Positions 46 through 119 of a DNA stretch of 33,177 nucleotides are shown piece after piece (the first letter of the stretch is position 1; each line of letters starts with the position of its first letter). Position numbers and translations under genes: made by a program. The notes under the pieces were generated by a model. That model was not told where the DNA came from and did no database searches. It saw only the letters and a program-made list of their open reading frames with translations. The DNA is from a virus (Duplodnaviria; Heunggongvirae; Uroviricota; Caudoviricetes): the IMG/VR virus record IMGVR_UViG_3300010352_001127; one strand, 5' to 3'.

Positions 46-119
46 GTTTACAGAATACTATTTGACTACAAATTACAAGTTTGTTGCTTCTAAAGCTGTT
101 TGTTTGCTGTAAGTATTCT
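46..119 (-). ncRNA. ACAGCAA minihelix element 1 with Thr(UGU)-type anticodon stem-loop
   Basis: AGAATACT/AGTATTCT 8-bp closing stem, TACAGCAAA after the 5' strand, internal ACAAA-CTTGTAA-TTTGT hairpin, then GTAAAC abutting the tRNA. Confidence 0.55.

Follow-up and report, generated by a model that had tools for sequence, protein, structure and literature searches.

We analyzed two short elements, E1 and E2, that lie between tRNA genes in a 33,177-nucleotide (nt) stretch of viral DNA (IMG/VR record IMGVR_UViG_3300010352_001127, Caudoviricetes; the whole stretch is hereafter the window). We propose, with a probability of about 60%, that they are Y-RNA-like partner RNAs of a putative Ro60-like ring protein and that they are cut from the transcript of the tRNA array. 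A Y-RNA-like ribonucleoprotein is the better-supported frame because the constant part of these RNAs, the handle, accompanies a Ro60-like DUF2828 gene in other phages, and because some of their relatives carry permuted-tRNA cargo as the Y RNA YrlA does. That E1 and E2 are members of one family of handle RNAs is close to certain. The family consists of a constant handle and variable tRNA-derived cargo and is widespread in viruses; E1 and E2 are typical tRNA-array members carrying anticodon-arm cargo. The DNA of the window comes from a huge phage and best matches LR756501, an uncultured phage of 735 kb (approximately 81% identity in patches), and after it the Lak phages. Its tRNA array lies on the minus strand (ARAGORN, Rfam), and all coordinates of E1 and E2 are read on that strand.

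The handle RNA family

E1 and E2 follow one common plan over their core spans (119..46 and 2428..2369, respectively). The handle is a helix of 7-8 base pairs (bp) formed by the RNA ends, followed by one nucleotide and the unpaired word ACAGCAA, with U-G after the helix return. The closing helix forms 8 pairs in each element, and A-rich stretches flank the anticodon-like hairpin in both (after ACAGCAA and before the helix return). A preliminary description of the window had noticed this scaffold of 8-bp closing stem, ACAGCAA, U33 hairpin (5-bp stem, 7-nt loop) and GTAAAC linker, and we confirmed it on the minus strand. As also described there, neither element has a D arm or a T arm: neither forms the tRNA cloverleaf (RF00005), and neither ARAGORN nor the Rfam tRNA model makes a call at these coordinates. 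The parts of the two elements are the following:

46..121, minus: E1 handle RNA, about 68-76 nt; AA-AGAAUACU-U-ACAGCAA, cargo, AGUAUUCU-GUAAAC
119..112, minus: E1 clamp helix, 5' strand AGAAUACU, pairing with 52-59
111, minus: E1 single nucleotide U between helix strand and ACAGCAA
110..104, minus: E1 unpaired word ACAGCAA, core of the RF01414 consensus CUUACAGCAA
96..86, minus: E1 small first hairpin GCUU-UAGA-AGC, retained in the LR756501 orthologue with a changed loop (GCUU-UAAU-AAGC)
84..68, minus: E1 cargo, anticodon-arm mimic ACAAA-CUUGUAA-UUUGU (UGU, U33, A37)
59..52, minus: E1 clamp helix, 3' strand AGUAUUCU, then GUAAAC tail at 51..46; next tRNA from 45
2369..2430, minus: E2 handle RNA, about 54-62 nt; AA-GGAAUACU-A-ACAGCAA, cargo, GGUAUUCC-GUAAAC
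2428..2421, minus: E2 clamp helix, 5' strand GGAAUACU, 8 bp
2419..2413, minus: E2 unpaired ACAGCAA, preceded by A at 2420
2406..2390, minus: E2 cargo, anticodon-arm mimic AUCUU-AUUCCAA-AAGGU (UCC, U33, A37)
2382..2375, minus: E2 clamp helix, 3' strand GGUAUUCC, one G-U pair
2374..2369, minus: E2 tail GUAAAC; next tRNA from 2368

The evidence that these are real RNAs comes from their relatives. When IMG/VR was scanned with a 20-nt degenerate handle pattern, more than 117 loci were returned. Many of these have, 30-140 nt further downstream, a 7-nt partner strand whose sequence varies together with that of the 5' strand (AGUAUUC, AGUAAUC, AGCAUUC, AGCAAUC, UGAAUCC and others). The carriers are dozens of IMG/VR contigs, metagenome-assembled genomes (MAGs) of giant viruses among them. 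In LR756501 the 15-nt handle pattern has 9 matches and its reversed control none. An alignment of 36 members showed both-sided change at 8 out of 8 helix pairs, with 96.9% of the cells paired; none of 500 shuffles reached this value, and sliding the partner strand by 1-3 columns reduced pairing to 26-49%. The word ACAGCAA is identical in all 36 aligned members and the G following the helix is conserved in at least 90% of them.

A covariance model of the family, R1, has only two strong matches in the window, E2 (61.4 bits, E = 6.1e-11) and E1 (61.2 bits, E = 6.7e-11), followed by a next best match of 14.6 bits. Both elements were part of the training alignment and so these scores hold partly by construction; independent handle members score 38-65 bits. 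The earlier view of E1 and E2 as structured small RNAs is borne out by R1 and by the covariation. E1 recurs unchanged in contig L130, its orthologue in LR756501 has compensating changes in the helix, and E2 has orthologues in LR756501/L047 and in L130. One of these (L130 6655-6715, minus strand) reads ACAGCGAA, a rare change of the otherwise invariant word.

Single-sequence folding energies are no better than those of shuffles (z = -0.5 and -1.0), and a loose 16-mer search that allowed 3 mismatches was not significant alone. The support for the family is comparative and not thermodynamic, since the folding z-scores are not significant while the helix covaries. The folding energies would fit inert relics, that is, decaying tRNA pseudogenes or inverted repeats that arose by chance in AT-rich spacer. 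Against this stand the covarying helix, the invariant 7-mer, the R1 scores of 61 bits and the conservation of the cargo across diverged phages. We give this reading almost no credence, as it is already contradicted by the covariation, by the R1 scores and by the protein-first linkage reported below.

Other classes of element were also considered. A terminator was ruled out (no U tract, and a loop of 40-60 nt), as was a miniature inverted-repeat transposable element or a CRISPR-like repeat (no periodic spacing in the window, and helix covariation of RNA type). The strand order of a hepatitis delta virus (HDV)-like or theta ribozyme after tRNAs, compared by eye, does not fit, since here the first strand pairs with the last. 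At gathering thresholds the Rfam matches in the window are tRNAs only, and in the array (1..2600) no Rfam match at E <= 10 was found to hammerhead, HDV-like/theta, twister, GOLLD, ROOL or Y RNA. The preliminary description had recognized no named family, and our Rfam search agrees for phage families, returning only RF01414 below threshold. We found no description of an ACAGCAA handle family in the literature or the RNA-family libraries searched, and a literature search for such a handle, or for permuted tRNAs of phages, returned no paper.

Association with a Ro60-like protein gene

We measured the association between handle RNAs and the DUF2828 gene from both sides. Among 117 loci that had been retrieved with the RNA motif only, 23 contain a gene with DUF2828 and DUF7788, and among the elements scored in these RNA-first loci the gene mostly lies 14-90 nt downstream of the handle on the same strand. 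Conversely, 51 out of 77 IMG/VR DUF2828 loci, none of which had been used to build R1, contain at least one R1 match (E <= 0.01). All 67 R1 matches in these protein-first loci lie on the strand of the gene, and many end approximately 20 nt before its start codon.

The predicted structure of the protein resembles Ro60. An AlphaFold model of the DUF2828/DUF7788 protein (predicted local distance difference test score, pLDDT, 81; predicted template modelling score, pTM, 0.76) was compared to the PDB with Foldseek, and the best 12 matches listed (13 at E <= 0.001) are Ro60, Rsr and the Ro60 of Thermus phage phiLo. These Ro60-type matches span the full length of the DUF2828 model, with E-values from 6e-9 to 3e-5. 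A sequence profile of the protein against PDB sequences also returned TROVE proteins first (E = 0.005). No Pfam TROVE match was found in LR756501, the DUF2828/DUF7788 protein included.

LR756501 has a single DUF2828/DUF7788 gene, located directly after an RtcB gene and approximately 20 kb from the array that is orthologous to the one in the window. About 2 kb upstream of the gene, the same strand carries a handle RNA. A weaker R1 match directly before the gene overlaps a small open reading frame (ORF) and was not counted. At the level of whole contigs, 3 out of 12 handle contigs without DUF2828 in the fetched flanks have the gene elsewhere, as compared to 1 out of 12 controls. The link between handle and DUF2828 is looser over whole contigs than at the locus level.

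Like the folding energies reported above, several observations weigh against E1 and E2 being partner RNAs of such a protein. One handle-bearing contig of 194 kb, 92% complete, has no DUF2828 match. We found no DUF2828, TROVE or RtcB gene in the window, and its lone protein with a von Willebrand factor A (vWA) domain (7144-7794) is unrelated to the DUF2828 family. Moreover, GNCGAA, the motif by which known bacterial Y RNAs bind Ro, is absent from the handle. Because the window has no DUF2828 gene, the partner protein is taken to lie elsewhere in the phage. Two short metagenome contigs match the window and neither extends to a DUF2828 gene; since the gene is absent from all three, we infer the partner of this phage from its relative LR756501 only. 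We also considered that the ORFs of 7794..5356 form one stop-broken recoded Ro60-like gene and rejected it, since the vWA protein ends cleanly and many stops follow.

Y RNAs combine a Ro60-binding terminal helix with an effector module (Chen et al. 2014, PMC4201824), and the module of YrlA is a tRNA mimic with the order V-T-acceptor-D (PMC4201824). In M. smegmatis RNase P cleaves YrlA, which also acquires a CCA tail (PMC4201824), and Thermus phage phiLo encodes a Ro60 together with its own Y-like RNAs, Yrl1 and Yrl2, which have the CGAA motif (PMC12135203). Handle RNAs similarly have a terminal helix as putative protein handle and a variable module that mimics parts of tRNA; in other phages their genes often lie directly beside that of a ring protein with a predicted Ro60 fold, there is a link to RtcB, and processing of the RNase P type is plausible for them. 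They differ in the handle word, which is ACAGCAA and not GNCGAA (GNCGAAN0-1G in bacteria), and in the candidate partner, DUF2828/DUF7788, which has no Pfam TROVE match while the partner of Y RNAs is a TROVE protein. Neither E1 nor E2 contains CGAA, and neither has a Rfam Y-RNA match at E <= 10. Since the CGAA motif is missing, the handle family is best regarded as a second type of partner RNA for Ro60-type proteins, distinguished by a new handle. If true, Ro60/Y-RNA systems would have a second and very widespread branch in huge phages, ordinary phages and giant viruses, in which the handle differs and the ring protein is divergent.

tRNA-derived cargo in the tRNA array

The cargo enclosed by the handle is highly variable. 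At one extreme it is almost nothing, as in five tandem units of 42-46 nt in the giant-virus MAG L121. Many members, E1 and E2 among them, carry a single anticodon-like hairpin (loops UGU, UCC, GAA, GUA, UUU, CAU, GCA and CCA), and some have an additional T-arm-like hairpin. At the other extreme, L068, L073 and L056 contain a whole permuted tRNA body, composed of variable region, T arm, loop-capped acceptor stem and D arm, and in the variants L005, L052 and L065 the attachment is via the acceptor stem, with an internal ...ACCA. T and D arms are thus seen in L068, L073, L065 and L005, unlike E1 and E2, which carry the anticodon arm only and in this differ from YrlA. The order handle, V, T arm, capped acceptor, D arm, handle found in some members is the layout of YrlA (Yrn1).

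Three contigs add side observations on these arrangements. The five minimal units of L121 (10650-10966, plus strand) lie approximately 560-830 nt from a DUF2828 homologue, which is encoded on the opposite strand, and a second giant-virus MAG contig, L089, also has a handle RNA. In the 104-kb phage contig L082 a handle RNA is preceded, at a distance of about 250 nt, by a GOLLD RNA (1117-1580, plus strand; 163 bits) that contains a tRNA.

A hairpin was counted as anticodon-like if it had a stem of 4 bp or more and a loop of 7 nt with U in position 2 and a purine in position 6. Such hairpins occur in 16 out of 49 short unique members, as compared to 2.9 +/- 1.7 in shuffled cargo, and in 22 out of 56 R1 matches (approximately 40%) when the neighbours of protein genes are included. 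Anticodon-arm mimicry, noted earlier for E1 and E2 alone, is therefore a trait of the family, and the search of homologues with the covariance model, which the preliminary description had suggested, showed that the anticodon-loop geometry is conserved in part of it. The hairpin of E1 is identical at 17 out of 17 positions in LR756501, L047 and L012, where the flanking spacers differ. The orthologue of E2 in LR756501 reads ACUUU-CUUCCAA-AAAGU, so that the stem has changed with pairing and loop kept.

The tRNA genes that adjoin the two elements are the following:

1..45, minus: 5' portion of a tRNA-like gene without D arm, loop CUUCUAA (UCU), 6 nt after E1; the window edge cuts the gene
122..193, minus: tRNA-Gly(CCC), ending 2 nt before E1 (ARAGORN and Rfam)
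2297..2368, minus: tRNA-Gly(UCC) with C33, loop CCUCCAA and an odd T loop, 6 nt after E2 (Rfam tRNA 47.3 bits; missed by ARAGORN)

Both elements abut atypical tRNAs, as had been claimed: E2 the C33 tRNA-Gly(UCC) and E1 the D-arm-less tRNA-like gene. A whole copy of the latter is found in L130 (5448-5526, minus strand; Rfam tRNA 35.7 bits, missed by ARAGORN), where 2 nt replace the D arm and the variable region is long, with approximately 20 extra nt. Its anticodon stem covaries between the window and LR756501. The canonical U33 loop of E2 beside a C33 tRNA of the same anticodon also stands, the two loops being AUUCCAA and CCUCCAA. In L130 the orthologue of E2 has the loop ACC directly before a tRNA-Gly(ACC), as the window has UCC before tRNA-Gly(UCC). 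A general rule that the cargo anticodon mirrors the adjacent tRNA was rejected: it is true for E2 and its L130 orthologue, and not in general. Cargo may track the adjoining tRNA at the E2 locus alone.

The distance to the upstream tRNA gene is 2 nt for E1 and 35 nt for E2, and that from the handle end to the next tRNA is 5-13 nt in at least 15 called cases. For E1 and E2 these distances (6 nt to the following tRNA in both) suggest release by ordinary tRNA processing. To judge from strand and spacing, E1 and E2 would be transcribed together with the minus-strand array. They may then be released as RNAs of 60-75 nt, with RNase P cutting at +1 of the tRNA 6 nt downstream and the other end set by 3' trimming of the upstream tRNA. 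The handle would dock on the Ro60-shaped ring protein of the phage (DUF2828 plus DUF7788/vWA), as Y RNAs do on Ro60. For this step the gene neighbourhood in other phages is strong evidence; for the phage of the window the protein is a candidate partner. More speculatively, the cargo (Thr-UGU in E1, Gly-UCC in E2) might offer a tRNA look-alike to a tRNA-binding factor, which could be either tethered to the ring protein or titrated by the cargo. Since RtcB adjoins the DUF2828 gene in the closest relative, the likely setting, again speculatively, is tRNA damage and repair during infection. If true, tRNA arrays, C33 tRNA variants, RtcB repair and tRNA mimics would belong to one possible counter-defence module.

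The constant tail of 5-13 nt between handle and tRNA +1, and the unusual tRNAs that follow both elements of the window, could also be explained if the helix, 6 nt before an atypical tRNA, were a cis-acting processing leader that aids RNase P or RNase E. However, most protein-first members precede a protein gene and not a tRNA, tandem arrays such as those of L121 and L053 have no nearby tRNA, and the orthologue of E2 in LR756501 precedes a normal tRNA-Gly(GCC). We consider this explanation, which the preliminary description had offered as an alternative, very improbable, as many members lie far from any tRNA.

The permuted members raise a further possibility, namely that the helix marks excision or end-joining in split or permuted tRNA genes, of which E1 and E2 would be decayed remnants. 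In LR756501 one handle (L006, approximately 207.1 kb, minus strand) interrupts the anticodon loop, on its 5' side, of a tRNA that is complete in other respects, handles flank whole permuted tRNAs in L068 and L073, and the RtcB ligase adjoins the partner gene in LR756501. Yet E1 and E2 have no tRNA body, their anticodon-like hairpin is conserved and not decaying, the bulge-helix-bulge geometry is absent, and YrlA has the same permuted layout without splicing (PMC4201824). We hold splice or permutation signals to be extremely unlikely. As an observation apart, the L006 handle is capped by a GCA triloop, and its layout is a circular permutation of the handle-around-permuted-tRNA of L068 and L073.

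The last alternative takes E1 and E2 as free-standing anticodon decoys. Their U33 arms would sequester anticodon nucleases or modification enzymes of the host, with the C33 tRNAs of the phage escaping, and no dedicated protein would be involved. The cargo loops equal real tRNA loops in these phages (CUUGUAA that of Thr-UGU, AUUCCAA/CUUCCAA that of Gly-UCC), and the family has many different anticodons, as expected of a decoy panel. U33 is nearly universal in tRNAs, and three tRNAs on the minus strand of the window have C33: Gly-UCC (CCUCCAA, 2297-2368), Ala-UGC (CCUGCAA, 2464-2537) and Thr-UGU (UCUGUAA, 2821-2894). A second Thr-UGU (2904-2984) has kept U33. C33 variants (Gly-UCC, Ala-UGC, Val-UAC and others) recur in the related phages L048, L047 and L001, and these tRNAs are possible nuclease-escape variants.

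Such variants would fit evasion by changes of the anticodon loop, as published for phage tRNAs that thereby evade anticodon nucleases (van den Berg et al. 2023, PMC10264068). E1 and E2 have in common with those tRNAs the setting in a phage tRNA array, a likely tRNA-cleavage conflict and the C33 tRNAs that adjoin them; unlike those working tRNAs, they are not tRNAs and keep the canonical loop. Decoys as such leave unexplained the invariant ACAGCAA handle and its tight, strand-specific link to the Ro60-like gene, and approximately 60% of the members have no anticodon-like cargo. We judge free-standing decoys unlikely. The idea stays alive as a possible job of the cargo, since U33 cargo stands beside C33 phage tRNAs, and decoy activity is compatible with a Ro60 partner RNA as the possible role of its cargo.

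Class I RNAs and other observations in the window

The sole recurring non-tRNA Rfam match of E1 and E2 in E-value mode is RF01414, the Dictyostelium Class I RNA (22.1 and 17.4 bits, respectively; 24-30 bits for shorter relatives and 25-30 bits for the best relatives), below the gathering score of 41.5. Other members likewise have RF01414 as their best Rfam match apart from tRNA. Class I RNAs are about 60 nt long, start with AAG, end with CUGU and have a 6-bp terminal helix that is conserved in structure only (PMC7919456); the word CCUUACAGCAA follows right after the helix and the remainder is variable (Kjellin et al. 2021, PMC7919456). They were reported absent outside Dictyostelia in a survey that did not cover viruses (PMC7919456).

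Like Class I RNAs, the viral elements have a terminal helix of the RNA ends and an unpaired word after its 5' strand, CCUUACAGCAA in Class I and ACUUACAGCAA in E1. E1 matches the 11-nt Class I word at 10 out of 11 positions and E2 at 9 out of 11. The ends are also Class I-like, E1 reading AAAG...ACUUACAGCAA...CUGU and E2 ending with CCGU. The terminal helix, 11-nt word, AAG start, CUGU end and length of about 60 nt that make up the Class I design are found here. Several features differ. The viral scores of 17-30 bits lie under the 41.5 of Rfam, and the viral genes are found in tRNA arrays or before the DUF2828 gene and not behind a DUSE promoter. Where Class I genes have this promoter approximately 60 nt upstream and belong to Dictyostelia, E1 and E2 have a tRNA gene upstream and a huge-phage context. 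The hosts are phages and giant viruses and not amoebae, and the known binder of Class I RNAs is the RNA recognition motif protein Rnp1A, while the viral candidate partner is the DUF2828 protein. We read the viral handle as of the same design as Class I RNAs, a likeness that need not mean common descent.

A broader proposal would unite viral handle RNAs and Dictyostelium Class I RNAs in one class of Y-RNA-like DUF2828 partners in phages, giant viruses and some eukaryotes, the interchangeable anticodon-arm cargo serving as a set of tRNA look-alikes by which defences that cut tRNA are sensed or disarmed. We regard this as doubtful. If true, it would give a protein partner and a biochemical frame to the Dictyostelium Class I RNAs, whose function has been open since 2004, and would place Class I-type RNAs beyond the social amoebae, to which they were thought unique.

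Other genes of the window were noted in passing. Inside the tRNA array lies a lone antitoxin of the Xre/MbcA/ParS type (1192-1722, minus strand) with a helix-turn-helix and a toxin-binding domain, and no recognisable toxin of the RES/MbcT type adjoins it; an anti-defence role as antitoxin mimic is possible. The tRNA array and genes near it are interrupted by three endonuclease-like ORFs (198-1085, 3501-4433 and 16323-17132), which encode two DUF559/MTES_1575 proteins and one Cys-rich DUF7487-like protein. The first of these ORFs, 198-1085, is the part common to Lak phages (69.5% DNA identity). Finally, two very large ORFs on the minus strand (24041-27811, 1256 amino acids, and 30198-33176, at least 992 amino acids) contain collagen triple-helix repeats and are probably fibre proteins.
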